Shown: positions 22,912 to 47,485, counted from the stretch's first letter. The stretch is DNA of 64,000 bases from an uncultured Planctomycetia bacterium (GCA_964536865.1 CAZHYN010000001.1:97824-161823), one strand, 5' to 3'. Numbers and translations: made by a program. The notes: generated by a model not told the origin, from the sequence alone.

Positions 22912-22984
22912 CTAAAAATATCCCTCTTCTGAGGGATATTTTTATTGAGTTGTCTGTGACTGATTTGAACTGTTTATTTGCGCG

Positions 22985-23194
22985 ATGTGGTATTTGTATA
23001 TATGTAAAAAAGGTGACAAGCTATACACTGGGATAACAACCAATCTCAATAATCGACTACGTCAACATCAGCAGGCTGAGTTGTTATATAGAGAGACTTT
23101 TCCAAATAAAAAAGAAGCGGCCTTACGTGAGCGCCAGATAAAAGGATGGCGCAGAGAAAAGAAGATTTCTTTAGTCTATCGCGGAAATAAATAG
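22985..23194 (+). CDS. small GIY-YIG nuclease domain protein
   Basis: 69 aa with GIY-YIG signature (WYLYICKKGDKLYTGITTNLNNRLRQH...E). Confidence 0.7.
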   Translation: MWYLYICKKGDKLYTGITTNLNNRLRQHQQAELLYRETFPNKKEAALRERQIKGWRREKKISLVYRGNK

Positions 23195-23221
23195 TGAGTT
23201 TACCCTGAGCGAAGTCGAAGG

Positions 23222-23241
23222 GAATCCAGGCCGGGCAGCCA
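23222..23241 (+). repeat. 20-bp direct repeat of the tRNA-Gln 3' end (att-like)
   Basis: GAATCCAGGCCGGGCAGCCA is identical to tRNA positions 22892..22911. Confidence 0.75.
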
Positions 23242-23355
23242 ATTTTGCAGGGCAAAATTGGCAGAGCAATTGAGCAATAGAGAATAGAACAATAGAGTTG
23301 ATGCTCAATTGCGGTCTATTGGTCAATTGTTCTATTGTTCAAATAAGGTTTCTTT

Positions 23356-23616
23356 ATGGCATTTCTTTTCAATAAGCTTGAGGTGTACCAGAAAGCAGTT
23401 AATTTAACCGATAGAATAACCTTTTTAACCGAGAAATTCCCCAGAGGAACATATTACCTGTCTGAGCAATTAAACCGGGCGGCTTTGTCGATTTCGTTGA
23501 ATATTGTCGAAGGCAACGGAAGGTTTCACCGTAAAGACCAGCAGAATTTTTTTAGAATAGCCCGCGGTTCTGCCTTTGAATGCTTCCCTATAGTAGAGCG
23601 AAAAAAGGGTGTGTAG
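23356..23616 (+). CDS. four-helix-bundle protein (23S rRNA intervening-sequence protein family), probably C-terminally short
   Basis: N-terminal LEVYQKAVNLTD...FP...QL.RAALSI..NIVEG motif typical of the family. Confidence 0.65.
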   Translation: MAFLFNKLEVYQKAVNLTDRITFLTEKFPRGTYYLSEQLNRAALSISLNIVEGNGRFHRKDQQNFFRIARGSAFECFPIVERKKGV

Positions 23617-23710
23617 TTAAAGATGTAAGCTGGTTTATTTTTTGGGAAAGAGAATTGGAAAGTAATAACTTCAATTTTCATACACTTCTGAAATATTTCA
23701 TTACATATAC

Positions 23711-23739
23711 TTGACAGGTTATCTTACCTATGTTATATT
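23711..23739 (+). promoter_or_regulatory. sigma70-like promoter (TTGACA-17-TATATT) for the HTH-Panacea gene
   Basis: Consensus -35 TTGACA at 23711..23716, 17-nt spacer, -10 TATATT at 23734..23739. RBS AAGGAGGTG and ATG at 23759. Confidence 0.45.
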
Positions 23740-23758
23740 CTAAGAAGGAGGTGAGAAT

Positions 23759-24580
23759 ATGCGTGAAAGAATGAAAGAATTTTATAGAAAAATCGGGGAT
23801 AGAATAAGACAATTGCGGGAAAAAATAGGGATTTCTCAGGAAGAACTAGCTAAATCTTTAGGCATAAATAGAGTTTCTTTATCTCAAATAGAAAATGGAG
23901 AAAGAAAAATAACAGCTGAAGAGGTTGCAAAGATTTCCAATATATTTAATATCAATGCCGATATACTATTAGATTTGGAAGAAGATATGAAGGTAGTGGT
24001 GGAAAAAAGAAAAACAAAAACTTCTTCTAAAAATATTAAATCAAACATTAGAATAAATATTCCTCAGAAGAATCTTGAGAAATTTAAAGAAGTTTTGCTT
24101 TATATTTTAAATAAAGTGGGGTCAAAGCCTAATATTGGAGAAACAGTATTGTATAAGCTTCTTTATTTTATAGATTTTGATTTCTACGAGAAATATGAAG
24201 AGCAATTGATAGGAGCCACATATATAAAGAATCATTTTGGTCCTACCCCCATAGAGTTTAGAGAAGTTATTAAAGAGATGAAGGGTAAAGATTTGATAGA
24301 AGTAAAAAGCGAATACTTTAAGTATCCCCAAAGAAAATACCTTCCTTTAAGAGAGCCGGATTTGAGTAAATTAAAAGCACATGAAATAAAACTTATAGAT
24401 GAGGTTTTAGAAAGATTATCTGATATGAATGCACAGCAAATAAGTGAGTATTCTCATAATGATATTCCTTGGTTGACTACAGAAAGAGGAGAACGTATAG
24501 ACTATGAATCAGTTTTTTATCGTACTTTACCCTATTCAGTGAGGAGCTATAGTGAAGATACCGACGAAGAGAATATTTAA
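23759..24580 (+). CDS. HTH_XRE + Panacea (DUF4065) domain protein, candidate PanA-type antitoxin
   Basis: N-terminal XRE HTH (LSQEELAKSLGINRVSLSQIENGERK). C-terminal region with Panacea-like pattern (LYKLLYFIDFDFYEKYEEQLIGATYIKNHFGP). Confidence 0.6.
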   Translation: MRERMKEFYRKIGDRIRQLREKIGISQEELAKSLGINRVSLSQIENGERKITAEEVAKISNIFNINADILLDLEEDMKVVVEKRKTKTSSKNIKSNIRINIPQKNLEKFKEVLLYILNKVGSKPNIGETVLYKLLYFIDFDFYEKYEEQLIGATYIKNHFGPTPIEFREVIKEMKGKDLIEVKSEYFKYPQRKYLPLREPDLSKLKAHEIKLIDEVLERLSDMNAQQISEYSHNDIPWLTTERGERIDYESVFYRTLPYSVRSYSEDTDEENI

Positions 24581-24989
24581 TGAAATCGTTGAGCTTCCCG
24601 AATTTAAAAAAGATTTTAAAAAACTTGCCAAAAAATTTAAAACCCTTCCAGATGATTTTGAGATATTTAAAAATACTCAACTAAAAGCATTTCATAAGTT
24701 AAAACAGGACAATAGAGGAAATTTACCAATATCTAACTTAGGAATAGATTATCCTTTAATCTATAAAGTTGTAAAATTTGCTTGCCGTGTTCTAAAGGGG
24801 AGAGGTGTTAAAAGTGGAATTCGTATTATTTATGCATATTATCCCGATGAGGACAAAATAGAATTTATTGAGATTTATTATAAGGGAGAGAAAGAAAATG
24901 AAGATAGAGAAAGAATATTAAGATATTATTCCAAGAAAGCAGGTAGCAAAGAAGGTAAAGAAGGAAAATACAGTAAAGGTCGCTCGTAG
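24552..24989 (+). CDS. RelE/ParE-fold toxin-like protein, candidate toxin partner
   Basis: Overlaps the upstream gene by 29 nt. Core GIRIIYAYYPDEDKIEFIEIYYKG resembles the RelE/ParE beta-strand signature (RIIY...i.I..i..R). Confidence 0.4.
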   Translation: MKIPTKRIFNEIVELPEFKKDFKKLAKKFKTLPDDFEIFKNTQLKAFHKLKQDNRGNLPISNLGIDYPLIYKVVKFACRVLKGRGVKSGIRIIYAYYPDEDKIEFIEIYYKGEKENEDRERILRYYSKKAGSKEGKEGKYSKGRS

Positions 24990-25167
24990 TGCAATTACAT
25001 AAGGTTTGTGATTAAAAGATACACTCTAAACACCCTAAAACTACAGTAGTGGAGACTATTAGAAGAAAAAAGAAATAATAAGCACAGCCAAAACCTCCCC
25101 CACCTACCAATGTTTTTTAAAAATCCTAACTCAGATGAACTCAGATGACCAAATCCATCCACCATAA

Positions 25168-25284
25168 GTGGATCTGCCTCTGGCAGAAAAATCAGGAATA
25201 TTTTACACTAGTGAATCTTTTTATTGTAACGTATGTGGGTATAGGGAAGTGTGTAAGGGATGGCGAGAAACAAGCTATTTGTGA
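25168..25284 (+). pseudogene. C-terminal remnant of a Cas4/PDDEXK-like nuclease (CX2CX5C)
   Basis: Start-less frame encodes ...GIFYTSESFYCNVCGYREVCKGW*. About 50 bp near-identical to 33505..33553. Confidence 0.35.
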
Positions 25285-25424: not shown

Positions 25425-25450
25425 AACCGTTCAAAACAAGGAGGTAACAG

Positions 25451-26203
25451 ATGAGGGGGCTGGGTGAGCTTAAAAATATCCAGATTATCATATTGGGGCT
25501 GTGTATTGCTTTTGCAACAATAGTATCTACAGTAATACTTTCAAAAGGGCTTCTTAAGATTAAGAAGTTTACAGGTGAGGTAATAAAGGTAACCGGTTCT
25601 GCTGAGAAGAAAATAATTTCTGATTATATTGTCTGGAATGCAGAATTTTCCCGAAGGGCACCTGATTTAAAAACAGCCTACGTAAAACTTCAAGAAGACC
25701 TTAAAAAAGTTAAAGAATATCTGGCTTCAAAAGGAGTAAAAGAAAATGAGCTGGAAATCCTTCCGGTTAATACCAAGATACTTTACAAAAAGAACGAAAA
25801 AGGCTATGACACCAATGAGATTGAAGGATATCTTTTATCCCAGGGCATAGAGATAAAATCCTATGATGTCAAAAAAATTGATGAGGTATCGCGTTCCTCA
25901 ACCGAACTTATCAACCAGGATATCCAGTTTATCTCAAAAGCACCTAAGTATTTTTATACAAAGCTTGCCGAACTCAAAGTAGAGATGCTTGCTAAAGCAA
26001 CTGAAAACGCAAAACAGCGCGCCATAAGTATGGCAAAATCAACGGGGAATAAGATTGGCGTTATACGCTCTGCCAGGATGGGAGTATTTCAGATAACTCC
26101 ACCTACCTCAACCGATGTTTCCTGGTATGGAGAGAATGACACATCCTCATTAGAGAAAAAAGTTATGGCAGTAGTCGCCGCCACCTTTTCCATAGAAGAA
26201 TAG
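25451..26203 (+). CDS. SIMPL/DUF541 family periplasmic protein
   Basis: 250 aa with N-terminal signal/anchor and SIMPL-like length and composition; call from overall pattern only. Confidence 0.5.
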   Translation: MRGLGELKNIQIIILGLCIAFATIVSTVILSKGLLKIKKFTGEVIKVTGSAEKKIISDYIVWNAEFSRRAPDLKTAYVKLQEDLKKVKEYLASKGVKENELEILPVNTKILYKKNEKGYDTNEIEGYLLSQGIEIKSYDVKKIDEVSRSSTELINQDIQFISKAPKYFYTKLAELKVEMLAKATENAKQRAISMAKSTGNKIGVIRSARMGVFQITPPTSTDVSWYGENDTSSLEKKVMAVVAATFSIEE

Positions 26204-26304: not shown

Positions 26305-26484
26305 ATGATGAAAAAAATAGCATTTGTAAATCCCCACACTGTCCAGGAAATAGCCCAAGCCCTCAAATTACATCCTTACACCATTCGCAGACTTTGCCGG
26401 GAAGGTAAAATCCCAGCTTTTTCCGCCATACTTTATGACGGATCCGCCTCTGGCGAAAAGTTTGGCGGGAGAATGGAGATTTAG
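26305..26484 (+). CDS. excisionase-family (Xis/HTH_17-like) DNA-binding protein, 59 aa
   Basis: Below the ORF-track size cutoff. EIAQALKLHPYTIRRLCREGKIPAF is near-identical to ORF 32358..32585. Confidence 0.55.
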   Translation: MMKKIAFVNPHTVQEIAQALKLHPYTIRRLCREGKIPAFSAILYDGSASGEKFGGRMEI

Positions 26485-26588: not shown

Positions 26589-27761
26589 TTGAAAATTATG
26601 GGTGTAAATTTTAAACATATCGATTTAAGATTGGTTGACCCACCTTTTGGCTCAGAATTAAATACTCTGGTGTTAGAACTTGATTATTTACGCAAGAAGC
26701 CTCTGGGCGGCACTACTCACCCACTTATATTTTTTCAATTGAAAAGAATTTTTCATCTTTTAGAGAGTATAGAGTCGGCAAGAATTGAAGGGAATCGTAC
26801 TACCTTAGCTGAGTATATCGAAAGGAAAATCGAGGGAAGCAAAATAGAAGATGAGAGATTTCTGGAAATTGAGAACAACGAAAGAGCGCTTGATTTTATT
26901 GAGGAAAATGTCAATCATCAGAAAATAGACCGTCTTTTTTTAAGCCAGATTCATAAAATAATAGTCAATAACTTAACTCCACCACCTAAAGGCGAAGGAA
27001 GTAAATACCCCAGTAGTTATAGAAAAGTAGATGTTAAAATAACACAATCTTCGTTTATCCCGCCCAATGTTTCTCAAGTCCCTTCTTATATGGAGGAGCT
27101 TTTTTCATTTATTAATAAAGATTATCCTCCACAGTATGATTTATTGAAAGTTGCTCTTGCTCACTGGAGGTTTGCCTGGATTCACCCCTTTGATAATGGC
27201 AATGGAAGGGTAGTGCGTTTATTGACTTATGCAATGTTAATAAAGTACGGTTTCAGGGTGCATATCGGAGGCAGGATTATTAATCCCACTGCTGTGTTCT
27301 GTTCTGACCGGAAAAAATATTATCATTACCTCTCAATGGCTGACCAAGGAGATGATACTGGATTGCTTAGGTGGTGTGAGTATGTTCTTGCCGGCCTTAA
27401 AGAGGAGATAACAAAAATTGATAAGTTGCTTGACTATAAATTTTTATTGGAAAAAATTTTAATACCCGCCTTAGAATTTGCCTTAGACAGAAAGTATATT
27501 ACAGAAGTAGAGCATAAAATATTAAAGATAGCAGCGAGTAAGCAAGTTATCCAGGCAAAAGATATTAAAATGCTTTTCCCTCGCAAGATACCTGCTGCCA
27601 TATCCAGGATTATCAGAAGGCTAAAGGCGAAAAAGATGCTCCAGGAAGAAAAAAGAGGCAGTAGAAAATATGTAATTATGTTTGAAAACAATTATTTATT
27701 GAGGGCAATTATAGAGATGCTGGGCAGGGAAGGTTTTCTGCCTGTTGGAATAAATCAATAG
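26589..27761 (+). CDS. Fic family protein (AMPylase/phosphocholinase family) with C-terminal wHTH
   Basis: Canonical Fic motif HPFDNGNGRVVR. C-terminal winged-helix-like region. Confidence 0.8.
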   Translation: MKIMGVNFKHIDLRLVDPPFGSELNTLVLELDYLRKKPLGGTTHPLIFFQLKRIFHLLESIESARIEGNRTTLAEYIERKIEGSKIEDERFLEIENNERALDFIEENVNHQKIDRLFLSQIHKIIVNNLTPPPKGEGSKYPSSYRKVDVKITQSSFIPPNVSQVPSYMEELFSFINKDYPPQYDLLKVALAHWRFAWIHPFDNGNGRVVRLLTYAMLIKYGFRVHIGGRIINPTAVFCSDRKKYYHYLSMADQGDDTGLLRWCEYVLAGLKEEITKIDKLLDYKFLLEKILIPALEFALDRKYITEVEHKILKIAASKQVIQAKDIKMLFPRKIPAAISRIIRRLKAKKMLQEEKRGSRKYVIMFENNYLLRAIIEMLGREGFLPVGINQ

Positions 27762-27841
27762 CTTTTACAATAAAGAATATTTATATTTTATAAATTGCAC
27801 TGAATTTAGCGATTCCGGTTTGATGTTAAGGAGATAGAAGA

Positions 27842-28279
27842 GTGGAAAAGAAATCAGAGAAAAAAGTGAAAAATGAAATTGATCAAGTTTATTTAAAAAG
27901 AGATAGGTTCTTTTTACTTAAAAACCCTACCGTTAAAAAACTGCATAAGATTCTTAAGTGGGCTAATTCTTGTGCTTTATTTTCTCAAGTTACTTTTCTT
28001 GACTGCGCTCAAAGTTTCAGGAGATTGCATTCTGATAAAAAAATAGAAGATTTACTCCCTTTTATTAATCAGAAGAATAAAACCTGTTTTAGGGTAATTT
28101 TGCGAAGAGATTTCAACTGGTATGGCTGGTTTTCTGATGATACTCATATTGAAGATATTATTGAAGTTGCTATGTGGGGAATTGAAATTGATTCAAAAGA
28201 GTATTTTATACAATGTTTCTTAAAGAAAGAATATATGCCTGAATTAAAAAAGAAATTTGATTTGGTAGAAATTAAATGA
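27842..28279 (+). CDS. hypothetical protein
   Basis: 145 aa, GTG start. 5' leader and first codons (GTGGAAAAGAAATCA) shared with RadC copy 2. Confidence 0.3.
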   Translation: MEKKSEKKVKNEIDQVYLKRDRFFLLKNPTVKKLHKILKWANSCALFSQVTFLDCAQSFRRLHSDKKIEDLLPFINQKNKTCFRVILRRDFNWYGWFSDDTHIEDIIEVAMWGIEIDSKEYFIQCFLKKEYMPELKKKFDLVEIK

Positions 28280-28382
28280 TGTTAACAAAACTAATAAATT
28301 TTAAAAAGGAAAAGTGCTTTGGGAAATTGTTTTTACAACTGATTGATAATAAAATACTTGCTGAAATAAAAAGGAGGAAATA

Positions 28383-29840
28383 ATTACCAGATATAAAATT
28401 TTTGTAAGTTCTGTCCAGAAAGAATTAGAAAAAGAAAGAGCTGCTATTGATAATTTTATTAACTCTGATGTTTTCCTTTCAGAATATTTCAATGCCTTCA
28501 TATTTGAAAAATTACCTGCCAAGGAGAAATCAGCTAAAAAAGTTTATCTCAATAAACTTAAAAATAGTGATATTTACATAGGCATTATTGGAAAAGAATA
28601 TGGAGAAATTCAAGAAAATGGATTATCTGCGTTTGAGAACGAATTTCGTCTTGCTCAACAGTTAGGCTTACCTATTTTTGTCTATATTAAAGGGAAAGCT
28701 TCTCAAGACAAAAGGCGAGATAAGAGATTGCAGAAGATAATTAAAGAGATTAAACATCCTGGGGAAGGTTACATTTACAGACGTTTCACCAGCATTGAGG
28801 AGCTTAAACGTTTGATACAATCCAGTCTAATAGAATTCTTAAGAGAAAGAGGAATTATTAGCAAAAAGATAGAAGCTTTTGAGGAGGAAGTTTGTAAAGA
28901 AGCAACTTTAAAAGACATAGATGAAGATAGAGTTGAATGGTTTTTACAGATTGCAAAAGAAAAGAGGGGTTTTTCTATTCCTGTAAGTCAAAGGTCATCT
29001 TTAAAAGATATTTTAATTCATCTTAATTTAATAAAAGAAAACAAACTTACAAATGCTGCCGTTTTGCTTTTTGGTAAAGACCCTTCTAAATTTTTCCATC
29101 AAGCAGAAATAAAATGTTTACATCTTCCCGGGGTAGAAATTTGCAAACCGTTTTTATCCTATAAAATCTACAACCAGAATTTATTTGAACAGATAGATAA
29201 AGCTATAAGTTTTGTATTAGATGCTATCAGACAAAGCGTTATTCAGCAAGAACATACTCCTCAATTTTACCGTCCTTTTGAAATTCCTGTATTTGCCATT
29301 CAAGAAGCGATAGTTAACGCTGTTGCCCACCGAAATTATAATAACACTGCAGGGGTTCAGGTGTTGGTTTTTGTAGATAGAGTAGAGGTGTGGAGCCCAG
29401 GAAGACTTCCTCCAGCTTTAACTGTAGAGGATTTAAAGAAACCGCATACTTCATATCCCACAAATCCTCTTATTGCACGAATTTTATTTCTTGCTAACTA
29501 CATCCAGAAAGCAGGAACAGGAACATTAGAGATGGTAAAACAATGTAGAGAACATGGAATTCCTGAACCGCAATTTGTTACTATACGTGATGTAGAATTC
29601 AGAACCATTCTGCCCCGAGATATTTACACAATATCTTTCTTAAAACAAGCGGGATTAAATGAAAGACAAATACAGGCAGTAAAGATTGTTAAAGAAAAAG
29701 GAGCTATTAGTCTTTCTGATTTGCAAAATATCTATAAGAATATTACTCGCAAAACCTTATATCGTGATTTACAAACTCTTGTAAATAAAGGTATTCTTAA
29801 AGCAAGAGGAGACAAAAGGGGGCGTAAATACTCTTTTTAG
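28383..29840 (+). CDS. DUF4062 N-terminal domain + HATPase_c_4 + C-terminal wHTH protein; start codon uncertain
   Basis: In-frame extension upstream of ORF 28728 encodes YKIFVSSVQKELEKERAAIDNFI (DUF4062-like). No ATG/GTG/TTG follows the stop at 28362 until TTG at 28728. Strong RBS AAAGGAGG at 28369 followed by ATA/ATT. C-terminal part has the HATPase_c_4 motif AIVNAVAHRNY. Confidence 0.45.
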   Translation: MTRYKIFVSSVQKELEKERAAIDNFINSDVFLSEYFNAFIFEKLPAKEKSAKKVYLNKLKNSDIYIGIIGKEYGEIQENGLSAFENEFRLAQQLGLPIFVYIKGKASQDKRRDKRLQKIIKEIKHPGEGYIYRRFTSIEELKRLIQSSLIEFLRERGIISKKIEAFEEEVCKEATLKDIDEDRVEWFLQIAKEKRGFSIPVSQRSSLKDILIHLNLIKENKLTNAAVLLFGKDPSKFFHQAEIKCLHLPGVEICKPFLSYKIYNQNLFEQIDKAISFVLDAIRQSVIQQEHTPQFYRPFEIPVFAIQEAIVNAVAHRNYNNTAGVQVLVFVDRVEVWSPGRLPPALTVEDLKKPHTSYPTNPLIARILFLANYIQKAGTGTLEMVKQCREHGIPEPQFVTIRDVEFRTILPRDIYTISFLKQAGLNERQIQAVKIVKEKGAISLSDLQNIYKNITRKTLYRDLQTLVNKGILKARGDKRGRKYSF

Positions 29841-29979: not shown

Positions 29980-30693
29980 ATGAAAAATAAATCAAAACAA
30001 CGTAAAGTTTATGAGAAAGCAATAAAAAATTGGCCAAAGGACGAACGTCCCAGAGAGAAGCTTTTTAAATTAGGAGAACACAAACTTTCCAATACAGAAC
30101 TTTTAGCTATTTTGCTTCGCAGTGGTATAAAGGGAGAAAGTGCTGTTGACCTGGCAAGAAGAATCATTCAAAAATTCAGAACTTTCAGAAATATGAGCCA
30201 TACAGATATAAGAGACTGGAAAGAATTTAAAGGTTTAGGTCAGGCAAAAATAGCCCAGATTAAAGCAGCAATTGAAATAGGAAGAAGATTTAGAGAAGAG
30301 GAAATAAAAGAAAAACCTCCTCAGATAAAATCCTCCTGTGATGTTGTAGAAATTATGATGCCAAGAATGAGAGACTTAAAGAAAGAAGTATTTAAAATAC
30401 TCCTTCTAAATTCCAAAAACAGGATTCTTGATATTGTAGAAATAACTCAGGGCACAGTAAACCAGGCAAACCCCATAATAAGAGAAATATTTGAAAAATC
30501 TTTACAATCCTATGCTTCATCCATCATCTGCGTCCACAACCATCCTTCCGGAGATCCTAAACCCAGCAAAGAAGACGAAGAATTCACTAAAAGCTTAACT
30601 AAAGCAGGAGAAATTCTAAACATAAAAGTATTGGACCATATCATAATAGGAGATGATGAATACTATAGTTTTGCTGATGAAGGGACGATATAA
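29980..30693 (+). CDS. radC: RadC-like JAB/MPN domain protein (copy 1)
   Basis: HhH-like N-terminus (LSNTELLAILLRSG) and JAMM motif HNHPSGDPKPSKED. Confidence 0.8.
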   Translation: MKNKSKQRKVYEKAIKNWPKDERPREKLFKLGEHKLSNTELLAILLRSGIKGESAVDLARRIIQKFRTFRNMSHTDIRDWKEFKGLGQAKIAQIKAAIEIGRRFREEEIKEKPPQIKSSCDVVEIMMPRMRDLKKEVFKILLLNSKNRILDIVEITQGTVNQANPIIREIFEKSLQSYASSIICVHNHPSGDPKPSKEDEEFTKSLTKAGEILNIKVLDHIIIGDDEYYSFADEGTI

Positions 30694-30990: not shown

Positions 30991-32385
30991 ATGACCAAGA
31001 AAGAACTAAATATAATTTTAAAAGAAGGTGAAGGATACAAGATTGAATTTAAAGAGAAGGTAAGTAATATCGAGAAGGAGTTGGTAGCATTTGCCAATTC
31101 CTCTGGTGGCAGGATACTGCTTGGGGTAACCGACGATGGTAAGATTAAGGGAATAAATGTAACCAATAGACTGAAATCTATGATTCAAGATATAGCGAAT
31201 AATTGCCGTCCGCCAATTAAGATTTCTTTTGAAAGCATAGGTAACGTTCTTGCGGTTAATGTAAAAGAAGGAGAAGATAAACCCTATGAATGCACTTCTG
31301 GTTTTTACAAAAGAATGGGGCCAAATTCTCAGAAAATGACAAGAAACGAACTAATTAGATTCTTTAAAGCAGAGGGAAAAATCAGGTTTGACGAACTTAT
31401 AGAGCCAAAGTTTAGTTATCCTAAAGATTTTGACAAAGGGAAATTTAAAAGATTCTTGCAATTGGCCGATATCTCCAGAGTGGGAAGTGCAGAAAAATTA
31501 CTTGTTAGTTTAGGGGTGGCTGAGAAACAGGAAGGCAGACTCTACTTTAATAATGCCGGTATACTTTTCTTTGCTAAAGAACCACAGAGGTTTATTCCCT
31601 GGTCAGTGTATACTGTGGCATTATTTAAAGATGAAGCAGGAGTTGATATTATAGACAGAAAAGAGATAACTGGCAGTTTATTTGAGATTGTAGAGGAGGT
31701 AATGAAATTTGTAAGGCTTTATACAAAAGTTGCCTACCGTTTTACCGGCAGACCTCGCAGAGAAAATGTATATGAATACGCTTTTGATGCAATCAGGGAG
31801 GCAGTAATAAATTCAGTAATGCATAAATATTACTTTGAACATGGACACAACAATATCTTGAGATTCTTCCCTGACCGAATAAGGATTGAGAACTACTGGC
31901 AAAAGCCTGGCCATTTTGTTCTTGGCAAAACTGTCTTTAGAAGAAACCATATTATCGCTGATTTGTTTTCCAAAATTCATTTCGGCGAGAAAATGGGTAC
32001 AGGTTTTGAGAGAATAAGACAAATATGTAAAAAAGAAAAAGCCCCTTATCCTGATATTGAGTTTACCGAAAATTACTTCTATATAACTTTCAAGCAGAGC
32101 TATGAATACTTAAAACTTGCTGGGAAGCGTCCTCCTAAAGAAGGGTCTTTAACTACTACCCAGAAACAGAAAACTGTGGAGAAAACTGTGGAGAAAACTG
32201 TGGAGAAGATTCTGCATTTGATTAAAGAAAATCCCAAAATAACAATGAGAGAAATAGAACGGGTAACCGGTTTAAGCAGACGAGGCGTTGAATGGAATAT
32301 TGCCAAACTCAAAAAAGAAGGTCAAATCAAACGCATTGGTCCTGATAGAGGCGGGTATTGGCAAATTGTGGCAGAGAAAAAATAA
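30991..32385 (+). CDS. AlbA_2 (Schlafen-like divergent AAA) + HATPase_c_4 + wHTH protein
   Basis: AlbA_2 N-terminus (EGEGYKIEFKEKVSNIEKELVAFANSSGGRILLGV) and HATPase_c_4-like (AIREAVINSVMHKYY). In-frame 3x repeat TVEKTVEKTVEK before the C-terminal wHTH. Confidence 0.7.
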   Translation: MTKKELNIILKEGEGYKIEFKEKVSNIEKELVAFANSSGGRILLGVTDDGKIKGINVTNRLKSMIQDIANNCRPPIKISFESIGNVLAVNVKEGEDKPYECTSGFYKRMGPNSQKMTRNELIRFFKAEGKIRFDELIEPKFSYPKDFDKGKFKRFLQLADISRVGSAEKLLVSLGVAEKQEGRLYFNNAGILFFAKEPQRFIPWSVYTVALFKDEAGVDIIDRKEITGSLFEIVEEVMKFVRLYTKVAYRFTGRPRRENVYEYAFDAIREAVINSVMHKYYFEHGHNNILRFFPDRIRIENYWQKPGHFVLGKTVFRRNHIIADLFSKIHFGEKMGTGFERIRQICKKEKAPYPDIEFTENYFYITFKQSYEYLKLAGKRPPKEGSLTTTQKQKTVEKTVEKTVEKILHLIKENPKITMREIERVTGLSRRGVEWNIAKLKKEGQIKRIGPDRGGYWQIVAEKK

Positions 32386-32585
32386 TGAGCAGGCAAGTTT
32401 TATCCGATATAATTAAAGAATTCTCTCCCACTGTAGAAGAAATAGCCCAAGCCCTTAAACTTCATCCTTACACCATTCGCAGGCTTTGCCGTGAAGGTGA
32501 AATCCCAGCTTTTTCCGCCATACTTTATGGCGGATCCGCCTCTGGCGAAAAATTTGGCGCTTCCGTTTTGATGTTAAGGAGATAG
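32358..32585 (+). CDS. excisionase-family (Xis/HTH_17-like) DNA-binding protein
   Basis: 75 aa. EIAQALKLHPYTIRRLCREGEIPAF; paralog of 26305..26484. Confidence 0.55.
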   Translation: MANCGREKIMSRQVLSDIIKEFSPTVEEIAQALKLHPYTIRRLCREGEIPAFSAILYGGSASGEKFGASVLMLRR

Positions 32586-32590
32586 AAGAA

Positions 32591-33307
32591 GTGGAAAAGA
32601 AATCAAGGCACTACAAAGTTTATGAGAAAGCAATAAAGAACTGGCCTGAAGATGAACGTCCCAGAGAGAAGCTTTTTAAATTAGGAGAACACAAACTTTC
32701 CAATACTGAACTTTTAGCTATCTTACTCCGTAGTGGTATAAAAGGAGAAAGTGCAATTGACTTGGCAAGGAGAATCATTCAAAAATTCAAAACCTTCAGG
32801 AATATGAGTCATACCAATTTAAATGATTGGAAAGAATTTAAAGGTTTAGGTCAGGCAAAAATAGCCCAGATTAAAGCAGCAATTGAAATAGGAAGAAGAT
32901 TTAGAGAAGAGGAAATAAAAGAAAAACCTCCTCAGATAAAATCCTCCTGTGATGTTGTAGAAATTATGATGCCAAGAATGAGAGACTTAAAGAAAGAAGT
33001 ATTTAAAATACTCCTTCTAAATTCCAAAAACAGGATTCTTGATATTGTAGAAATAACTCAGGGCACAGTAAACCAGGCAAACCCCATAATAAGAGAAATA
33101 TTTGAAAAATCTTTACAATCCTATGCTTCATCCATCATCTGCGTCCACAACCATCCTTCCGGAGATCCTAAACCCAGCAAAGAAGACGAAGAATTCACTA
33201 AAAGCTTAACTAAAGCAGGAGAAATTCTAAACATAAAAGTATTGGACCATATCATAATAGGAGATAATAAATATTACAGTTTTGCTGATGAGGGAAAAAT
33301 AAGGTGA
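32591..33307 (+). CDS. radC: RadC-like JAB/MPN domain protein (copy 2)
   Basis: Near-identical to 29980..30693 after the first ~10 codons. HNHPSGDP motif. Confidence 0.8.
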   Translation: MEKKSRHYKVYEKAIKNWPEDERPREKLFKLGEHKLSNTELLAILLRSGIKGESAIDLARRIIQKFKTFRNMSHTNLNDWKEFKGLGQAKIAQIKAAIEIGRRFREEEIKEKPPQIKSSCDVVEIMMPRMRDLKKEVFKILLLNSKNRILDIVEITQGTVNQANPIIREIFEKSLQSYASSIICVHNHPSGDPKPSKEDEEFTKSLTKAGEILNIKVLDHIIIGDNKYYSFADEGKIR

Positions 33308-33316
33308 GGCAAAATA

Positions 33317-33409
33317 ATGAGAGAAAAAGATATCAATTTTGAAGAAAAACTCTGGAAGGCAGCAGATAGAGAAAATATTATAAAAACTTTCCCAAAATTC
33401 AACGAATAA
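33317..33409 (+). pseudogene. 30-codon N-terminal fragment resembling HsdM N-terminus
   Basis: MREKDINFEEKLWKAADREN matches the HsdM_N LWxAADxLRG-type motif, then terminates. Confidence 0.3.
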
Positions 33410-37210: not shown

Positions 37211-39031
37211 TTGCTGGGGCACATGTGGGAAGATAAAGTTTTAAAAGTTGCTTTTTCTATTCATTCAAATCCTGGCATATATGCATTGTTGTTGGGTTCT
37301 GGAACATCAAGAGAAGCAGGTATTCCTACAGGATGGGAAATAGTAGGAGATTTAATTAAAAAACTTGCCTTTGTTCAGACCAAAGAGTCATTATCAGATC
37401 CCTATAAATGGTATGAAGAAAAATTTGGAGAGAAACCAGATTATTCAAAAATTTTAGAAAAGTTAGCAAGTACTCCTATAGAGAGGCAGTCGCTTTTAAG
37501 AAGATATTTTGAGCCTACAGAGGAAGAAAAAGAACAAAGAATTAAAATCCCTACAGATACTCATAGGAGTATAGCTAAATTAGTTAAATATGGATATGTG
37601 AAGGTTATTGTCACTACTAATTTTGATCGTTTATTAGAGAAAGCCTTAGGAGAAAAAGGAATAACACCAGTTGTTATCAGTACCGATGATGAATTAGAAG
37701 GAGCTATTCCTTATGTTCATTCCAATTGCACTTTGATAAAAGTTAATGGAGATTATTTAGATACACGTTTAAGAAATACGATGGGTGAATTGGAAACCTA
37801 TTCAGAGAAATTGACTTCATTGCTCGAAGAAATTTTTGAAAGATTTGGATTAATTGTGTGTGGATGGTCGGCGAAATGGGATATTGCTTTAAGAGATACC
37901 ATTTTAAGAATAAAAAATAGAAGATTCCCTATGTATTGGCTTTCTAAAGAAGAGGTTACAGAGGAAGCGAAAAGGGTTATTTCACATAGGCAGGCAGATG
38001 TTATAAATATCGAAAGTGCCGATAAGTTTTTTGTTGAACTTTTAGAGAAGATCGAATCTTTACGAGAGTTCGAAAGCCCACATCCTTTATCTTACAAAGA
38101 GGCTGCTATAACTGTTAAACGTTATTTGTCAGATGAAAAGAAAAATAGGATTAAGCTTTATGAGCTTATCGATGAAGAAACAGAAAAAGTATGGAAAATT
38201 TTAGCTTCAGAATATTTTAATATTCAAAAGTTAAAACTTGAACGTAGTTTGATTCAGAAAAGAATACATGAGTATGAAGAATTGGTAAAACCCCTTATGA
38301 ATATGCTAATGCCCATTGCTTATTTTAGCAAGGAAGAAGATAATATGCGCTTGATTTCCAGAGCAATAGAACGAATCGCGCAACCGCATCAGCGAGCTGG
38401 CGTTGTAGCATTGATACAATTTCAACATTACCCTGCTTTACTTTTGCTATATGCAGCTGGTCTTGTAAGTTTAGCTAATGAAAATTGGAAGGTTTTAAAA
38501 GCAGCTTTATTGGAACCACAATATCAAGCTGATAATGAGAAACAACCAATTTTAGAATATATCGAGCCATATTATATTTTAAGAAGATTAGGATTTAATA
38601 ATAATGCAAAAAATAGAATTCTATCTGAAAATGACTATTTATTTTTTCTATTATCTGATTTTGTTAACGAATATATACCTGACAAAAATAAATATGAAGA
38701 AATATTTGATATTTTTGAATTTTTAATGGCAGTAACTTATGTTTATCAAGTAGTTTTTGTCTATGGGAGTGAAGAAGATAAGAAAACATTTAAAGAATCT
38801 GAGTATTTACCTACTAAGTTGATTGTTGGACGATTTGCACGGAAATACTTTAGTTGGCATCCCTCTAGAGATTTTGAAAAGTCTCCAATTGCTAGATTTA
38901 TAAACGAGGGGATAAAACAAGGTAATGAATGGGGGTTATTGAAAGAAGGATTCTTCGGAGGCTTTATAGAAACGTTTAAATTGTGCTGTAAAAAATATAT
39001 AAACACCTTGAGAAAGGTAAGAATCTCTTAA
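37211..39031 (+). CDS. SIR2-like (SIR2_2) domain protein with ~350-aa C-terminal domain of unknown function
   Basis: N-terminal SIR2-family motifs (LLGSGTSREAGIPTGWEIV, VTTNFDRLLE, HSNCTLIKVNGDY). No recognisable C-terminal domain. Confidence 0.7.
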   Translation: MLGHMWEDKVLKVAFSIHSNPGIYALLLGSGTSREAGIPTGWEIVGDLIKKLAFVQTKESLSDPYKWYEEKFGEKPDYSKILEKLASTPIERQSLLRRYFEPTEEEKEQRIKIPTDTHRSIAKLVKYGYVKVIVTTNFDRLLEKALGEKGITPVVISTDDELEGAIPYVHSNCTLIKVNGDYLDTRLRNTMGELETYSEKLTSLLEEIFERFGLIVCGWSAKWDIALRDTILRIKNRRFPMYWLSKEEVTEEAKRVISHRQADVINIESADKFFVELLEKIESLREFESPHPLSYKEAAITVKRYLSDEKKNRIKLYELIDEETEKVWKILASEYFNIQKLKLERSLIQKRIHEYEELVKPLMNMLMPIAYFSKEEDNMRLISRAIERIAQPHQRAGVVALIQFQHYPALLLLYAAGLVSLANENWKVLKAALLEPQYQADNEKQPILEYIEPYYILRRLGFNNNAKNRILSENDYLFFLLSDFVNEYIPDKNKYEEIFDIFEFLMAVTYVYQVVFVYGSEEDKKTFKESEYLPTKLIVGRFARKYFSWHPSRDFEKSPIARFINEGIKQGNEWGLLKEGFFGGFIETFKLCCKKYINTLRKVRIS

Positions 39032-40354: not shown

Positions 40355-40733
40355 GTAGACGGCATACAGTAAACAGTAGACAGGGAAAGGCAGAGAGATT
40401 TGAGCAGTTAGAAGTATGGAAAAAGGCACATGAGTTGGTTCTTAAAATAACAAAATTACAAAAGATTTTCCTTCAGAGGAAAAATTTGGATTAGTTTCAC
40501 AAATGCGACGTGCTGCTGTATCAATCCCTGCTAATATCGCTGAGGGATTTAAAAAGTATGGCTTAAAAGATAAGAGGAACTTTTATAACATAGCACAAGG
40601 CTCTCTTGAGGAATTAAGATACTATTTAATTTTATCAAAGGAACTTGGATATTGTGAAAATACAGATGAATTTTATAAAGCAATAGATACAATTGGGAAA
40701 ATGTTATATGGCCTTATTAAAAGTATACAGTAG
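40351..40733 (+). pseudogene. four-helix-bundle (23S rRNA IVS family) protein gene, frameshifted
   Basis: ATG overlaps the hsdS stop (ATGA). Frame A encodes MSRR...FEQLEVWKKAHELVLKITK. Frame C continues ITKDFPSEEKFGLVSQMRRAAVSIPANIAEG... Shift occurs in the A-rich tract near 40465. Confidence 0.55.
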
Positions 40734-43800: not shown

Positions 43801-43841
43801 AGAAACTTATTGAAAGAGTAAAGAACTATGGGACTTCATAA
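40836..43841 (+). CDS. hsdR: type I RM restriction subunit (helicase/endonuclease)
   Basis: 1001 aa. N-terminal PD-(D/E)XK region, SF2 helicase motifs (HWQGSGKT, FIDEGHRTQYG, TGTP). Confidence 0.9.
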   Translation: MAFDEKRLVEDYIIKQLEEKGWRFVPANALERDSYEEPLLIPNLRRALERINKESGIGDEEINKALNELKLTGTGIEGAKRILNFYKFGIPVKFEKEKVVKYIQLFDFQDIENNEFIVSRQVYFYGREAIRTDIILYVNGIPLVNIECKNPTSLTESWHTAYRQIKDYERLVPELYKYIQIGIGAESIARYFPIVPWQDEPVIHEWRDEKKDSIDSTVEMLSRNILLDIIKNYLFYREWRGEATKVITRYMQYRAANKMVDRVIKNLKGEEKKNKGLVWHWQGSGKTLTMLFAANKLYYAKELENPTIFFIVDRIELEDQLYKEFYSLDIVKPEIIGSVDELKGILQFDDYRGKRGVFITLIHKFRPEELKELYKELDEVTRYKETIMNRKNVIAFIDEGHRTQYGLLAAQMKSILKSAFFFALTGTPISKKGRDTYLEFSYPPDEVYLDRYFITDSIRDGFTVKIAYQPRLEKEVHLRKDLLKAFLEAEEEELPEEIRDDIKGRIKKRLNAIKVVLENPQRIKVIAEDIAKHFKEHIDGKFKAMVVAGSRKACHIYKQELDRHLPPEYSEIVMTYRRDDEQPLVKRIAETRERYGNRDISDIRKDIVEKFKEEAFPKILIVTDMLLTGFDAPILQVMYLDKLLKEHRLLQAVARTNRPYKDLKEGGLIIDYVGILKEFRKALEMYNEEDIRLALTSFDGIREEFALLLREILEILKEVSRNYEREVLLKACEILTTEKTKEKEFIEKYKSLRKAFELLGPDEIKLEYFEDYKWISAIYTYYMRTVLQKPPVEEYVERYYEKTVRFIHKATEIKKLETDLPIVAFDEGYLKALEERVKSRKEKAANILFTLNRLVLVERHRNPIYESLVEKVERLLELWKEKTKDYERIYREGVIAINEIKSLSERQKSLGFSDLEYSLLLALEEKFGKEEELVSEVRDISERLKNYMFPGWFNQPTVEKNVEREVRRFVRGFKGKYSMTLEEMDQLYKKLIERVKNYGTS

Positions 43842-44376
43842 TATCCCATATATAGTTTCCTATAGAGCTGTGAAGTATCCAAGATTAGAGTTTAAAACAG
43901 GAAAGCTTCTTATTGTTCTTCCTTTTGGAGCTAAGCCTGATATTCTTTTGGATAAGCATAAACATTGGATTATTAAGAAATCTGAATTTATAAAAAGATG
44001 CTTACAAAGTGCAAAGAATAAAAAATTAATCACAAGATCCGATGAAAAATTTAGGAAACTTATCGATTATTTTGTGAGAAAAACATCTAAAGATTTAAAT
44101 GTTAAATTGAATCGCATCTATTTTAGAAAAATGAAGACAAAATGGGCATCCTTGAGTTCTGCGAAAAATCTAACAATTAACTCACTTGTGAAACATTTGC
44201 CAGAGTATTTGATAAGATATGTGATTTTCCATGAACTGGTTCATATCATAGAGAAAAGACATAATGAGAAATTCTGGGAGATAGTCTCACACAGGTTTAA
44301 AAATTATCGAAAAATGGAAAGAGAAATGTTCATATATTGGTTTCTGGTTTCTAAAAAAGGAGGAGATCATGGCTGA
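43828..44376 (+). CDS. DUF45/YgjP-like zinc metallopeptidase (M48-like, WLM fold)
   Basis: HExxH...E motif (VIFHELVHIIEKRHNEKFWE). Gene family commonly found downstream of hsdR. Confidence 0.65.
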   Translation: MGLHNIPYIVSYRAVKYPRLEFKTGKLLIVLPFGAKPDILLDKHKHWIIKKSEFIKRCLQSAKNKKLITRSDEKFRKLIDYFVRKTSKDLNVKLNRIYFRKMKTKWASLSSAKNLTINSLVKHLPEYLIRYVIFHELVHIIEKRHNEKFWEIVSHRFKNYRKMEREMFIYWFLVSKKGGDHG

Positions 44377-44659: not shown

Positions 44660-44926
44660 TAAGTTTTCTTTTCGTCCTGAGTTTTCTTGAGATACAGGCG
44701 GTGAGGATACGTCTTTTAAATATTTTGTTATACCCTTAAAATCTTTAAAATATTGGAATATTTAATCACTTCCCATTTTCTCCCCCCACACCTCCTCAAA
44801 CTCTCCTGAACCACGTAGGGTCTTAAGGGGATGCCCTATGTTCTTTTTTATCCACTTCCTCATTTTTCCTCATCCCAATACAAGCCTTCCTGACCGACAC
44901 CCTTCTCAAAATTTGACATTTTTCTC

Positions 44927-45543
44927 ATTCTCAAATTCTTAAGAATATTAGAATAATTTCTGCCTCCACATTGGAATAGTTTCTGTCTCCATTTTATTTT
45001 TAGTCTTTCCCTTTACCATTCTCAAATTCTTAAGAACGTTGGAATAATCCCCAATCTTCATACCTACTTTCTCATTCTCAAATTCTTAAGAATATTGGAA
45101 TATTTTAATGAATGTGATATAATTTAAGAAGATGAAAAGCTCGCAAAAGAAGAATAAAAATTATCGTAAGTTAGAAAGGATTGTTAAAGGATTTGCAAAT
45201 CATCGCAGAATTCAAATCTTAGAGCTTTTAGAGAAAAATCCAGAGTTGTCAGTTATTGAAATTACTCAAGAATTGAATATGAATTTTAAGACTGCTTCTG
45301 AACACATAAGAAGGCTTGCTATCTCAGGTTTAATTATGAAAAGGTCTGATGGCAAAAGTATTCGTCACAAGCTTACAGAGAGAGGTCTAAAAGTTCTCAA
45401 ATTCTTAAGAACATTGGAATAGAAACCTTCAATTTTTTATATCCTTTTCTTTATTCTCAAATTCTTAAGAATATTAGAATAGCTCCTCTAATTTACTTTT
45501 TCAGTTTTCTTATCATTCTCAAATTCTTAAGAACATTGGAATG
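44927..45543. repeat. six dispersed copies of a ~29-bp iteron-like repeat with CTTAAG-centred palindrome
   Basis: ATTCTCAAATTCTTAAGAA(T/C)(A/G)TT(G/A)GAATA at 44927, 45018, 45074, 45394 (overlaps the wHTH stop), 45453 and 45515. Irregular spacing 91/56/320/59/62. Partial half-site near 44752. Confidence 0.8.
45132..45422 (+). CDS. small winged-helix (ArsR/MarR-like) DNA-binding protein flanked by the iterons
   Basis: 96 aa with HTH (RIQILELLEKNPELSVIEITQELNMNFKTASEHIRRL). Last codons are encoded by repeat copy 4. Confidence 0.6.
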   Translation: MKSSQKKNKNYRKLERIVKGFANHRRIQILELLEKNPELSVIEITQELNMNFKTASEHIRRLAISGLIMKRSDGKSIRHKLTERGLKVLKFLRTLE

Positions 45544-45666
45544 ATAAAGATATCTTACTTTTGCTCTCCACACACCCTGCCACCGATTTGTCTATATCTT
45601 TTAAAACTTTATAAATATTTACACTACATTTTTAACTTTATGGTATAATGTAGTGTAAGGAGGGTT

Positions 45667-45975
45667 TTGATGAAAGTATTAAGAAATATTTTAGAAGAAA
45701 GTAAAGAGTATTACCTTAAAGTTAAAAAGAAGATAGAGAGAAAAATTAAAAATTTACCTAAGGGTAGCGTTAAAGAAAGAAGGATTTGTGGTAAAAAGTA
45801 CTATTATCTTCAATATCGAGAAGGTAAAAAAGTAATTCATAAATATTTAGGTAAAAATAAACCCGAAAACCTCATAAGACAGATTAAGGAAAGGAAGGTA
45901 TTATTAAATGAGATGAAGAAAGTAAACGAGGCTATTGAGTTAATTAACAGGACAGAGAAGAGAAAAAGGAGATGA
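45667..45975 (+). CDS. hypothetical basic protein, first gene of a two-gene cassette
   Basis: 102 aa. Promoter TATAAT at 45644 is flanked by a perfect 11-bp inverted repeat TTACACTACAT/ATGTAGTGTAA. Confidence 0.3.
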   Translation: MMKVLRNILEESKEYYLKVKKKIERKIKNLPKGSVKERRICGKKYYYLQYREGKKVIHKYLGKNKPENLIRQIKERKVLLNEMKKVNEAIELINRTEKRKRR

Positions 45976-46322
45976 TTGAATCGGTTAGAAAGATTTTAAA
46001 GACATTCTATGAAAATAACCTTTTTGAAGAAGGAGTAGAACTTATAGGAAGCTGGTGCTTTCAATTTTATGTAAAGCATTTAGGTGCCAAGCCTTTTCCT
46101 CTAAGAACTCAGGATATTGATTTTTTAATTCCTTACCCTTTTAAAGGGGAAGACCATAAAGATTTAATAGAGCAATTAGAGAAATTAGGTTTTAAGAAAG
46201 ATTTTACTATAGAAGGACATTTATTTTTATGGAACCAAGATTTAAAAATAGAATTTTTGGTTTCCCAGAAGAATAAAGAATTAAAAGACTTCAGCAAGCA
46301 ATATGCACATTTTCTATTGTAG
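45972..46322 (+). CDS. putative nucleotidyltransferase-like protein (GS...DxD)
   Basis: GSWCFQFYVKHLGAKPFPLRTQDIDFLIP weakly resembles Pol-beta-fold nucleotidyltransferase/Abi toxin motifs. Overlaps the upstream gene by 4 nt. Confidence 0.3.
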   Translation: MIESVRKILKTFYENNLFEEGVELIGSWCFQFYVKHLGAKPFPLRTQDIDFLIPYPFKGEDHKDLIEQLEKLGFKKDFTIEGHLFLWNQDLKIEFLVSQKNKELKDFSKQYAHFLL

Positions 46323-46493
46323 AGAAAAAATATTTACAGAAATTATTGAATTCTTTACCCAAAAGATGGAGAAGAGCAATTTTTAATCTACTTAAGAAAG
46401 CTAAAGAAGAATTTCCTTTATATAAAGAAGATATAGAGAGTTTTCTTCTTACACTACAAGATATTAAAATTAAGAAATTGTAGTGTAATTAGG

Positions 46494-46796
46494 TTAATAT
46501 TTCATCTCCTCCCACACTCTCTCAAACTCCCTATACGCTGATTTATCCACTTCCTTATTCTTGTTATACTCAAAAACCAACTCTCCTGTATCCACCAAAG
46601 GTGGATCCGCCTCTGGCGGATAATGCTCATAAATCAAAATTTCATCATTTTCTTTCACAATGTCCACCGTAACAGTGTTAGGTTTAACAACCTGTTTTTC
46701 TTTGCCAATAGAGTACCCTAACAATAATCCAACAACCAAATACATCCCCAAAATAAAATATGCCTCAATCCTCCTATAAGTAACACTACCTGACAT
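46494..46796 (-). CDS. small membrane-anchored hypothetical protein
   Basis: 100 aa with one hydrophobic helix. Contains the GGATCCGCCTCTGGCGG junction motif on the opposite strand. Confidence 0.3.
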   Translation of the reverse strand: MSGSVTYRRIEAYFILGMYLVVGLLLGYSIGKEKQVVKPNTVTVDIVKENDEILIYEHYPPEADPPLVDTGELVFEYNKNKEVDKSAYREFERVWEEMKY

Positions 46797-46860
46797 GGTT
46801 TATTACTCCTTTCTTAACTCATTGATATATAAAGAAGATAGAACCATCCCCACCAGGTTC

Positions 46861-47055
46861 TCATAATTTTTGCGCCCCACTGGCAGAGATTACCCCCTTT
46901 CTTATAGTCCTTTCAGTAATAAACGTCTCTTTTTCATATTTTAAGATGTAGTTCTGTTCTTCCTTAGGCAGTTTTAGAAGGTTTAAAAACTGAGTTATTC
47001 TTACCCTGGATACTCCCAGTCTTTTAGCCAATTCAGTCTGAGTAAGCTTCTCTTT
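46861..47055 (-). pseudogene. ParB/Spo0J-like HTH fragment (start-less remnant)
   Basis: Minus-strand frame encodes LTQTELAKRLGVSRVRITQFLNLLKLPKEEQ, the classic ParB HTH-region signature. Upstream part is in a different frame. Confidence 0.4.
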
Positions 47056-47485
47056 TTAAGCGATTTCAGGTATTCTTTAGCCCTAACTATAGGATTTATA
47101 TAAGGATTTAATTATAGTGTCTTATCTCTTTCTTTGTAACTATCTTGTTTTTGGGGATAAAAGAAGGTTTTGCCCATATAAAGAGTCTTTATTTTATTAC
47201 AATATCGCCAGTGGCAGGCAACCTTTTCGTATATAGATTTAAGGATTTTTGTTCGCTGAGAGTATTGCACGGGGAGGAAGTTATTTTTCATAGAAAATTT
47301 ATTTTGAGCAGCAATGGAGTTTTTGCCAGTTTTTGTGGTCTATCTTTCAATAGGTTATACGATAATTTCTAATTATACAATATATGGCCGTTTAAATTTC
47401 TTGACACCCAACATATAGGGTTTATAATATTTACTAATTAAGTTCTTTAAATTGATCTTTGTATATTTTTCTTCTGGTGCCTTAA

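Follow-up and report, generated by a model that had tools for sequence, protein, structure and literature searches.

What occupies the roughly 24 kb between a tRNA-Gln gene and a cobalamin (B12) riboswitch with the nrdDG genes in the stretch of DNA introduced above, and how did it come to be there? An earlier note on the whole 64,000-nt stretch (the window, to which all coordinates refer) had placed a mosaic accessory and defence island at 22912-47480 between these two markers. Both markers lie where it put them according to ARAGORN, Rfam and Pfam, and nearly every gene that it named was also found between them with Pfam. For the present analysis the open reading frames (ORFs) and stop-free segments were profiled with Pfam, and the defence genes with the PADLOC profiles. 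The CheC gene just upstream of tRNA-Gln encodes a protein that is 100% identical to one from the Candidatus Omnitrophica metagenome-assembled genome GCA_021162445.1, and, judged from its sequence, the host of the window is a Candidatus Omnitrophota bacterium. We think it probable that the locus is a long-lived hotspot of gene flux beside tRNA-Gln in this phylum, filled here by ~23.4 kb of mostly defence-related accessory genes.

The comparison with relatives carries most of this reading. It made use of a second strain of the same species (GCA_021162445.1; contigs L086 and L087 on the left, L188 on the right), which is 96-98% identical to the window, and of a sister species from several metagenomes (L082-L085 on the left, L172-L174 on the right; ~87-88% nucleotide identity), named Omnitrophica bacterium 4484_70.1 by one source. 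On the left, L086 and L087 track the window through tRNA-Gln to ~23341 and then continue into unrelated sequence, of which L086 holds 150 bp before the contig ends. On the right, L188 is 97.8% identical to positions 46791-52682 of the window, and to the left of this junction it has 1446 bp that are unmatched in the window, including an IS3-like rve_3 gene and small ORFs. The IS3-like element (L188 516-1440) coincides exactly with the right-hand limit of the variable segment and could be a driver of turnover at the locus. Because the second strain matches only to ~23341 and again from ~46791, the strain-variable segment is, by this comparison, ~23342-46796, or ~23.4 kb; the limits in the earlier note came close to it but enclose somewhat more. 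The ParB remnant that the note had listed as part of the island is present, but it is conserved in L188 and so falls outside the strain-variable segment. The sister species diverges from the window at ~23449 on the left, and on the right its synteny is regained only at 52178, the start of a TetR gene, which is preceded by tRNA-Pro and polA in place of nrdDG.

Synteny of the flanks in related genomes was one of the checks that the earlier note had proposed, and gene order was found to be conserved neither in the second strain nor in the sister species, so that the reading given in the note held up. That the block is nevertheless ordinary core genome, with a variability that is only apparent and arises from fragmented or rearranged assemblies of the relatives, would seem very improbable. 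Its composition does resemble that of the flanks, and since the relatives' contigs end near the locus, the block is taken to be absent because those ends diverge, rather than because an unbroken empty site was seen. Yet the contigs of the second strain do not simply stop at the junctions but run on into the unrelated sequence described above, and the block has typical accessory and defence content with many pseudogenes.

The fault might also lie with the window itself, if a metagenome assembly had been chimeric or mis-joined across repeats. Short-read assemblies do break at the RadC duplication, at the junction repeat at 27.8 kb and at the 28-bp palindromic repeats, but we give this explanation very little weight. 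The two junctions and the RadC repeat unit are all found in contigs of other accessions (L181, L001, L175 and L190) with 100% identity to the window: L181 spans the left junction from CheC to Fic, L190 spans RadC1-AlbA_2-HTH_17-RadC2, and L001 runs from RadC2 through the restriction-modification (R-M) operon to TetR. As these contigs are independent of the window, they argue that its arrangement is not an assembly chimera.

The cargo has a clear defence component. As the earlier note had suggested, a defence predictor was run, and PADLOC found a type I R-M system, a SoFic-like Fic protein and a SIR2 protein of the candidate family PDC-S65; together with a Panacea module they lie within 21 kb. 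HsdM, HsdS and HsdR match their profiles over the full length in one locus and make up a complete type I R-M system. The predicted operon is intact-looking and four genes sit between its subunits, namely those for an AlbA_2-HATPase_c_4 protein, a 98-aa ORF and the SIR2 protein, all between hsdM and hsdS, and a 23S_rRNA_IVP pseudogene. The earlier note was right that the operon is full and that SIR2 is embedded in it, but the DUF45 and SNase-like genes that it also regarded as embedded come after hsdR. The match of SIR2 to PDC-S65 is full-length (residues 4-601 against positions 11-587 of the 592 in the profile). The GC content at third codon positions (GC3) is 0.33-0.37 in the hsd genes as against 0.22-0.23 in the embedded SIR2 and IVP genes, which fits a later insertion of these two into the hsd operon. 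In plasmids of Bradyrhizobium, Paenibacillus, Bacillus and Rubrobacter the homologues of PDC-S65 are solitary genes whose surroundings differ, and therefore the embedding does not imply a functional link between SIR2 and the R-M system. A literature search found no mention of PDC-S65. The 98-aa ORF was considered as a conserved partner of PDC-S65, which it is not in four plasmid contexts. A PD-(D/E)xK fold was also considered for it and was unsupported: its AF2 model (pLDDT 79) gave no match better than E 0.5 in a Foldseek search against the PDB.

The Fic protein scores 37.9 bits against the NCBIfam SoFic equivalog, for which the cutoff is 550, and its motif, HPFDNGNGRVVR, differs from the canonical HxFx(D/E)GNGRxxR in that the acidic residue is displaced by one place and an N occupies the D/E site. 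Because of this slight deviation in the motif and of the score far under the cutoff we name the protein SoFic-like. The AlbA_2/HATPase_c_4 proteins match only parts of the pAgo-associated profiles of PADLOC, and no PADLOC defence profile was matched by the SIMPL protein, RadC, the winged-helix (wHTH) gene or the ORFs of unknown function.

It is well known that type I R-M operons may hold other genes, PrrC in EcoprrI being an example. TgvAB of Vibrio cholerae VPI-2 is likewise embedded in a type I R-M operon (PMC11411939), and a guilt-by-embedding survey found that such operons commonly carry embedded defence genes (Payne et al, 2024; bioRxiv 10.1101/2024.01.29.577857). The operon in the window resembles these in having restriction-unrelated genes among hsdM, hsdS and hsdR, co-oriented and tightly spaced. 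It differs in what is embedded, here a SIR2 gene of the candidate family PDC-S65, an AlbA_2-HATPase_c_4-Fic-like_C gene, the 98-aa ORF and the IVP pseudogene. With its PDC-S65 SIR2 gene and Schlafen-like ATPase gene the operon is a concrete target for experiment, the question being whether the embedded genes act cooperatively or as a PrrC-like "guard".

Did the block arrive all at once? At least five genes in the island are truncated or frameshifted, GC3 ranges from 0.22 to 0.46 from gene to gene, and the repeat families D1, D5, D8, D15 and D16, together with the identity profile of the two RadC genes, trace recombination within it. The identity of RadC1 to RadC2 is 83-93% over the first third and 100% over the last 420 bp (bases 30239-30658 in RadC1); the latter tract points to a putative recent gene conversion. 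Two truncated HTH_17 genes are 92% identical over ~125 bp, each with a double-hairpin repeat, and are followed by different genes, copy a by Fic and copy b by RadC2. A 39-bp junction sequence and the first codons of RadC reappear after Fic (27803-27860 matches 32551-32609; the 39-bp repeats themselves are 27803-27841 and 32551-32589), and for this reason the Fic gene appears to be an insertion into an HTH_17-RadC junction. Imperfect 9-bp direct repeats (ARTTTRGCG) flank it. The 145-aa ORF that follows begins with the same codons as RadC2 and so marks a recombination junction. HTH_17/RadC junctions occur three times in all, with different cargo. The description of the island as mosaic and remodelled in the earlier note is borne out by these duplications, the identical RadC tract, the gene remnants and the heterogeneity in GC3.

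These features bear on the most serious alternative, in which the block is a single decayed integrative element, a plasmid or the remnant of an integrative mobilisable or integrative conjugative element (IME/ICE), acquired once at tRNA-Gln and since deprived of its integrase and transfer genes. The position next to a tRNA and the repeat of the tRNA 3' end would agree with this, as would the Xis-like HTH_17 genes, RadC, the ArsR-like wHTH gene with its operator arrays, the NTP_transf_8 pair and the ParB remnant, all typical of plasmids and ICEs, and the common orientation of the genes (from tRNA-Gln to the riboswitch all sizeable ORFs except one are on the + strand). We regard such an origin as rather unlikely. 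A single arrival does not account well for neighbouring genes that span so wide a range of GC3 or for HTH_17/RadC junctions that recur with different cargo; the ParB remnant occurs even where the block does not, in the second strain; and no relaxase or conjugation gene was detected in any frame, nor an integrase. The repeat of the tRNA end, moreover, lies 330 bp from the tRNA rather than at the far end of the block.

This repeat deserves a closer description. The accessory sequence begins at 22912, the first base past the 3' end of tRNA-Gln (22911). The window has two exact copies of the 20-mer GAATCCAGGCCGGGCAGCCA, where chance would give 0, and these bracket a small cassette with a GIY-YIG ORF. 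In the second strain and the sister species an unrelated spacer of ~98 bp stands where the window has this cassette, and the repeat is 28 bp long. Since the repeat is common to both species it is old, and the GIY-YIG cassette would then be a recent replacement specific to the strain of the window. Allowing up to 3 mismatches, a search of the window gave no further copy of the tRNA end, and local alignments over 23.3-52.2 kb scored no better than shuffled sequence; without a distal copy the repeat cannot provide the 23-kb block with its far att site. At its 3' end (23207-23221) the cassette carries a motif, GAGCGAAGTCGAAGG, that is also present in an unrelated metagenome contig (L126, ~132); small GIY-YIG elements may have it as a conserved end.

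The presence of the genes, their integrity and the variability of the segment are direct observations, from which a history of the hotspot may be proposed. An integrase-bearing element would once have entered the 3' end of tRNA-Gln and left the 20-28-bp repeat that is conserved across species, its integrase being lost later. Subsequent turnover could have proceeded by homologous recombination between the conserved flanks, by the activity of insertion sequences (IS) and by illegitimate or repeat-mediated insertions. As to the cargo, the R-M system is predicted to restrict unmethylated DNA, SIR2 and Fic are probably abortive-infection effectors that would act by depletion of NAD+ and by AMPylation, respectively, and the Panacea toxin-antitoxin module may stabilise the locus or add to defence; together they would defend the cell in layers.

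Several points weigh against a hotspot of this kind. The GC content of the island is 0.349 and that of the flanks 0.344, and the tetranucleotide correlation is only slightly lower in the island (0.91-0.95) than in the flanks (0.95-0.98), so that the check on GC and k-mer composition suggested in the earlier note showed no clear difference; material with the composition of its flanks would be long resident or exchanged among similar genomes. With Pfam, no integrase, recombinase or transposase was found in the ORFs or stop-free intergenic segments of the island. The same absence had been stated in the earlier note, correctly for the strain of the window but not for the second strain, with its rve_3 gene at the right junction. 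The repeat of the tRNA end encloses 310 bp only, so integration of the 23-kb block at the tRNA cannot be shown. All the contigs of the relatives break inside the locus, and neither the content nor the amount of cargo in other strains can be read from them. Finally, the SIMPL, RadC, AlbA_2-HATPase_c_4 and wHTH genes would count as accessory genes without a demonstrated role in defence.

Structured repeats at some of the junctions raise the further question of whether cassettes are exchanged at dedicated sites. A double hairpin (ATCCRCC-loop-GGYGGAT, then CYGCC-TCT-GGCRG and a run of A) has four copies in the window, all of them in the island, against 0 expected. As an island-specific recombination site it was rejected: a similar double hairpin with other stems is found in core DNA of the sister species, in the intergenic region between a glycosyltransferase gene and polA (L172 3066-3100), only one viral contig gave a match, and the apparent compensatory changes were too few. 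It is probably a REP-like dispersed repeat. A 13-mer, TTTATCCACTKCC, within a repeat of ~90 bp, occurs at 44847, 46542 and 50563 (3 copies, 0.2 expected), just downstream of the R-M/SNase, NTP_transf and nrdG modules, and is also found after nrdG in other lineages (L184 4300 and 7438-7571). There is perhaps a faint chance that the double hairpin and the 13-mer serve as sites for cassette swapping by a recombinase encoded elsewhere, in an integron-like system without a local integrase; if so, the Fic gene, with its 9-bp repeats and its position just 3' of a hairpin, and the promoter-to-stop nrdDG unit, which a distant relative shares at 95.6% identity, would be example cassettes. The likeness to integron cassette arrays lies in the compact co-oriented modules, some without start codons of their own, and in the short structured repeats at some junctions. 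Unlike in integrons, there is no IntI here, the double hairpin is not confined to cassette ends, being found also in core DNA of the sister species, and the modules are multi-gene operons with their own promoters.

The right-hand flank is itself a mobile unit. A cassette of promoter, cobalamin riboswitch, nrdD and nrdG begins shortly before a perfect -35/-10 promoter (47401-47428), ends no more than 5 bases from the stop codon of nrdG, and is 95.6% identical at the nucleotide level to its counterparts in L184-L187. In L184 (1144-4287) and L186 (1740-4883) it lies between HydF and a patatin gene. Because the unit is 95.6% identical while the neighbouring patatin gene is only 78% identical to that of the window, it is, on this evidence, a laterally exchanged cassette, which would have moved between lineages as a compact unit. 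The riboswitch-nrdDG flank was thus located correctly in the earlier note but is no stretch of stable core genome, and the mobility of the unit makes it unsuited as a core-genome anchor. When nrdD was tried as an anchor for synteny, contig scans of genomes and metagenomes returned homologues of at most 77% identity from many phyla with no shared neighbours, by which lateral transfer of nrdDG is hinted. Distant CheC homologues (L169-L171, at most 62% identity) were tried as well and had no synteny with the window. A supposed IS256-like transposase remnant at 51847-51978 had no match in Pfam and no tblastn match in the plasmid collection even at E 10, and the idea was dropped.

Taken as a hotspot, the locus is an ordinary case of a described class, and it confirms known principles without revealing a new one. 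With tRNA-adjacent and defence islands it shares the position immediately downstream of a tRNA gene, the repeat of the tRNA end, variability between strains, the combination of R-M, abortive-infection-type and toxin-antitoxin genes, and the pseudogenes; it differs from tRNA-adjacent islands in that it has no integrase, that the tRNA-derived repeat brackets 310 bp only and that there is no contrast in GC or k-mers. To our knowledge, hardly any Omnitrophota have been cultured, and there has been no experimental work on defence in the phylum. A recent preprint reports recombinases, IS elements and type I/III R-M genes as the dominant content of hypervariable regions in Omnitrophota genomes (bioRxiv 10.64898/2026.06.07.730766). 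Those regions share with the locus the phylum, type I R-M and toxin-antitoxin genes and remnants of mobile elements; the work is a survey, and in the passages considered here it does not describe this locus or its internal anatomy. For the phylum, the locus may serve as an example of a defence-gene hotspot with well-defined limits. Its features are collected in the table.

Features of the locus between tRNA-Gln and TetR, in order along the window, with the evidence for each
Feature	Position	Strand	Evidence or remark
tRNA-Gln(CTG), left anchor	22837-22911	+	ARAGORN; Rfam tRNA 59 bits
Direct repeat copy 1, tRNA-Gln 3' end	22892-22911	+	Exact 20-mer, twice in window
Strain-specific 310-bp mini-cassette between repeat copies	22912-23221	+	Holds GIY-YIG ORF
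Short GIY-YIG ORF, 69 aa	22985-23194	+	Pfam GIY-YIG E 3e-11, N-terminal part only
Direct repeat copy 2, att-like	23222-23241	+	Exact 20-mer; 28 bp long in relatives
Hairpin-rich segment, common to all relatives; last left-side sequence shared with second strain	23242-23341	+	Comparison of L082-L087 with window
23S_rRNA_IVP (four-helix-bundle, 4HB) gene, C-terminally truncated	23356-23616	+	Pfam E 7e-22, profile 2-72 of 106
XRE-HTH and Panacea (SocA-like) antitoxin gene	23759-24580	+	Pfam SocA_Panacea E 1.5e-19, HTH_3 E 9e-17
145-aa ORF overlapping Panacea gene, putative toxin partner	24552-24989	+	TIGR02385 RelE_StbE E 0.04 only
Double-hairpin repeat	~25158-25190, 26422-26458, 32514-32550, 46590-46622		
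SIMPL/DUF541 protein, no known defence gene	25451-26203	+	Pfam E 1.3e-25; no PADLOC match
Truncated HTH_17 (Xis/AlpA-like) gene, copy a	26305-26484	+	Pfam E 4e-8; 3' end replaced by double-hairpin repeat
Fic protein, SoFic-like	26589-27761	+	PADLOC SoFic E 1e-45, residues 53-365; Pfam Fic E 3e-17
145-aa ORF, initial codons same as RadC2	27842-28279	+	Repeat D16; no match in any library
DUF4062-HATPase_c_4-HTH gene	28365-29840	+	Pfam DUF4062 E 9e-20, HATPase_c_4 E 2e-19, stop-free frame
RadC copy 1	29980-30693	+	Pfam RadC E 1e-44
AlbA_2 (Schlafen-like)-HATPase_c_4-wHTH protein	30991-32385	+	Pfam
Truncated HTH_17 gene, copy b	32358-32585	+	Pfam E 6e-8
RadC copy 2	32591-33307	+	Pfam RadC E 1e-44
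Cas4/PD-(D/E)xK nuclease gene, C-terminal remnant	33370-33549	+	Pfam Cas_Cas4 E 1.4e-3, weak
hsdM, type I methyltransferase, 595 aa	33648-35435	+	Pfam N6_Mtase E 2e-115; PADLOC MTase_I E 1e-105
Embedded AlbA_2-HATPase_c_4-Fic-like_C protein	35444-36976	+	Pfam
Embedded small ORF, 98 aa (80 aa as called in L001)	36912-37208	+	No family match
Embedded SIR2 protein, PADLOC candidate family PDC-S65	37211-39031	+	PDC-S65 E 3e-194; Pfam SIR2_2 E 3e-9
hsdS, two similar target-recognition domains, 439 aa	39035-40354	+	Pfam Methylase_S E 5e-58; PADLOC Specificity_I E 2e-98; repeat D4
Frameshifted 23S_rRNA_IVP pseudogene between hsdS and hsdR	40380-40733	+	Pfam matches, two frames
hsdR, type I restriction subunit, 1001 aa	40836-43841	+	Pfam HSDR_N, SWI2_SNF2, T1R_D3; PADLOC REase_I E 9e-111
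YgjP-like/DUF45 metallopeptidase gene, downstream of hsdR	43828-44376	+	Pfam E 5e-25
Short SNase-like ORF, 96 aa	44369-44659	+	Pfam SNase E 5e-6, partial match
28-bp palindromic repeats, 3 + 3 around wHTH gene	44921-45547	+	Repeat family D2; degenerate seventh copy at 44726
ArsR-like wHTH gene, 96 aa	45132-45422	+	Pfam HTH_24, HTH_5
DUF6788 gene and truncated NTP_transf_8 gene	45667-46322	+	NTP_transf_8 Pfam E 1e-5, profile 3-54 of 218; DUF6788 via L001 match
100-aa ORF overlapping dispersed repeats, at right edge of variable segment (~46797)	46494-46796	-	L188 homology begins 46791
ParB HTH remnant	46864-47055	-	Pfam HTH_ParB E 3e-8; conserved in L188
Cassette of promoter, cobalamin riboswitch, nrdD, nrdG	47364-50508	+	95.6% nucleotide identity to L184-L187
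Cobalamin riboswitch	47458-47671	+	Rfam 107 bits
nrdD/nrdG	47719-50513	+	Pfam
Spacer without recognisable genes	50509-52177		Kept within species; absent beside TetR in sister species

In the left part of the island the Panacea gene and its 145-aa neighbour overlap in the manner typical of toxin-antitoxin pairs. The earlier note had called them an XRE-Panacea/RelE-like pair, and the Panacea half of this is clear, but the match of the partner to RelE is sub-threshold and does not establish the assignment. The 145-aa ORF had no match in Pfam or PADLOC and its AF2 model (pLDDT 44) was unusable. The DUF4062 domain has no ATG, GTG or TTG start before 28728, and an ATT lies 5 nt past a GGAGG motif; the gene would have either a rare start codon or a recent inactivation. 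Besides the Cas4-like remnant after RadC2 there is a second at 25168-25281 (repeat D8, 85% identity). In both AlbA_2-HATPase_c_4 genes the linker ahead of the C-terminal HTH contains three tandem 12-nt repeats (32168-32214 and 36654-36693), which encode TVEK x3 and VTEQ x3 and could vary in length.

In the right part, the 28-bp palindromic repeats, ATTCTCAAATTCTTAAGAAYRTTRGAAT, were considered as a replication origin; the gene that they flank is an ArsR/SmtB-type regulator and there is no Rep gene. They are more likely operator or centromere-like arrays, and a promoter-like site (45095-45123) overlaps the last repeat upstream of the wHTH gene. The DUF6788 and NTP_transf_8 genes are probably a decayed toxin-antitoxin-like pair.

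Two smaller differences from relatives were seen at or beyond the right edge of the region. In L189, a metagenome contig with 98.5% identity to the window, the 5' part of TetR is inverted (4994-5394, corresponding to 52170-52569 in the window); strains may therefore differ by an inversion where the non-syntenic region ends on the right. Further to the right, a second small variable spot distinguishes the window from the sister species at 59382-61496, with ORFs of 155 and 473 aa in the window standing in place of the PagL gene of L172.

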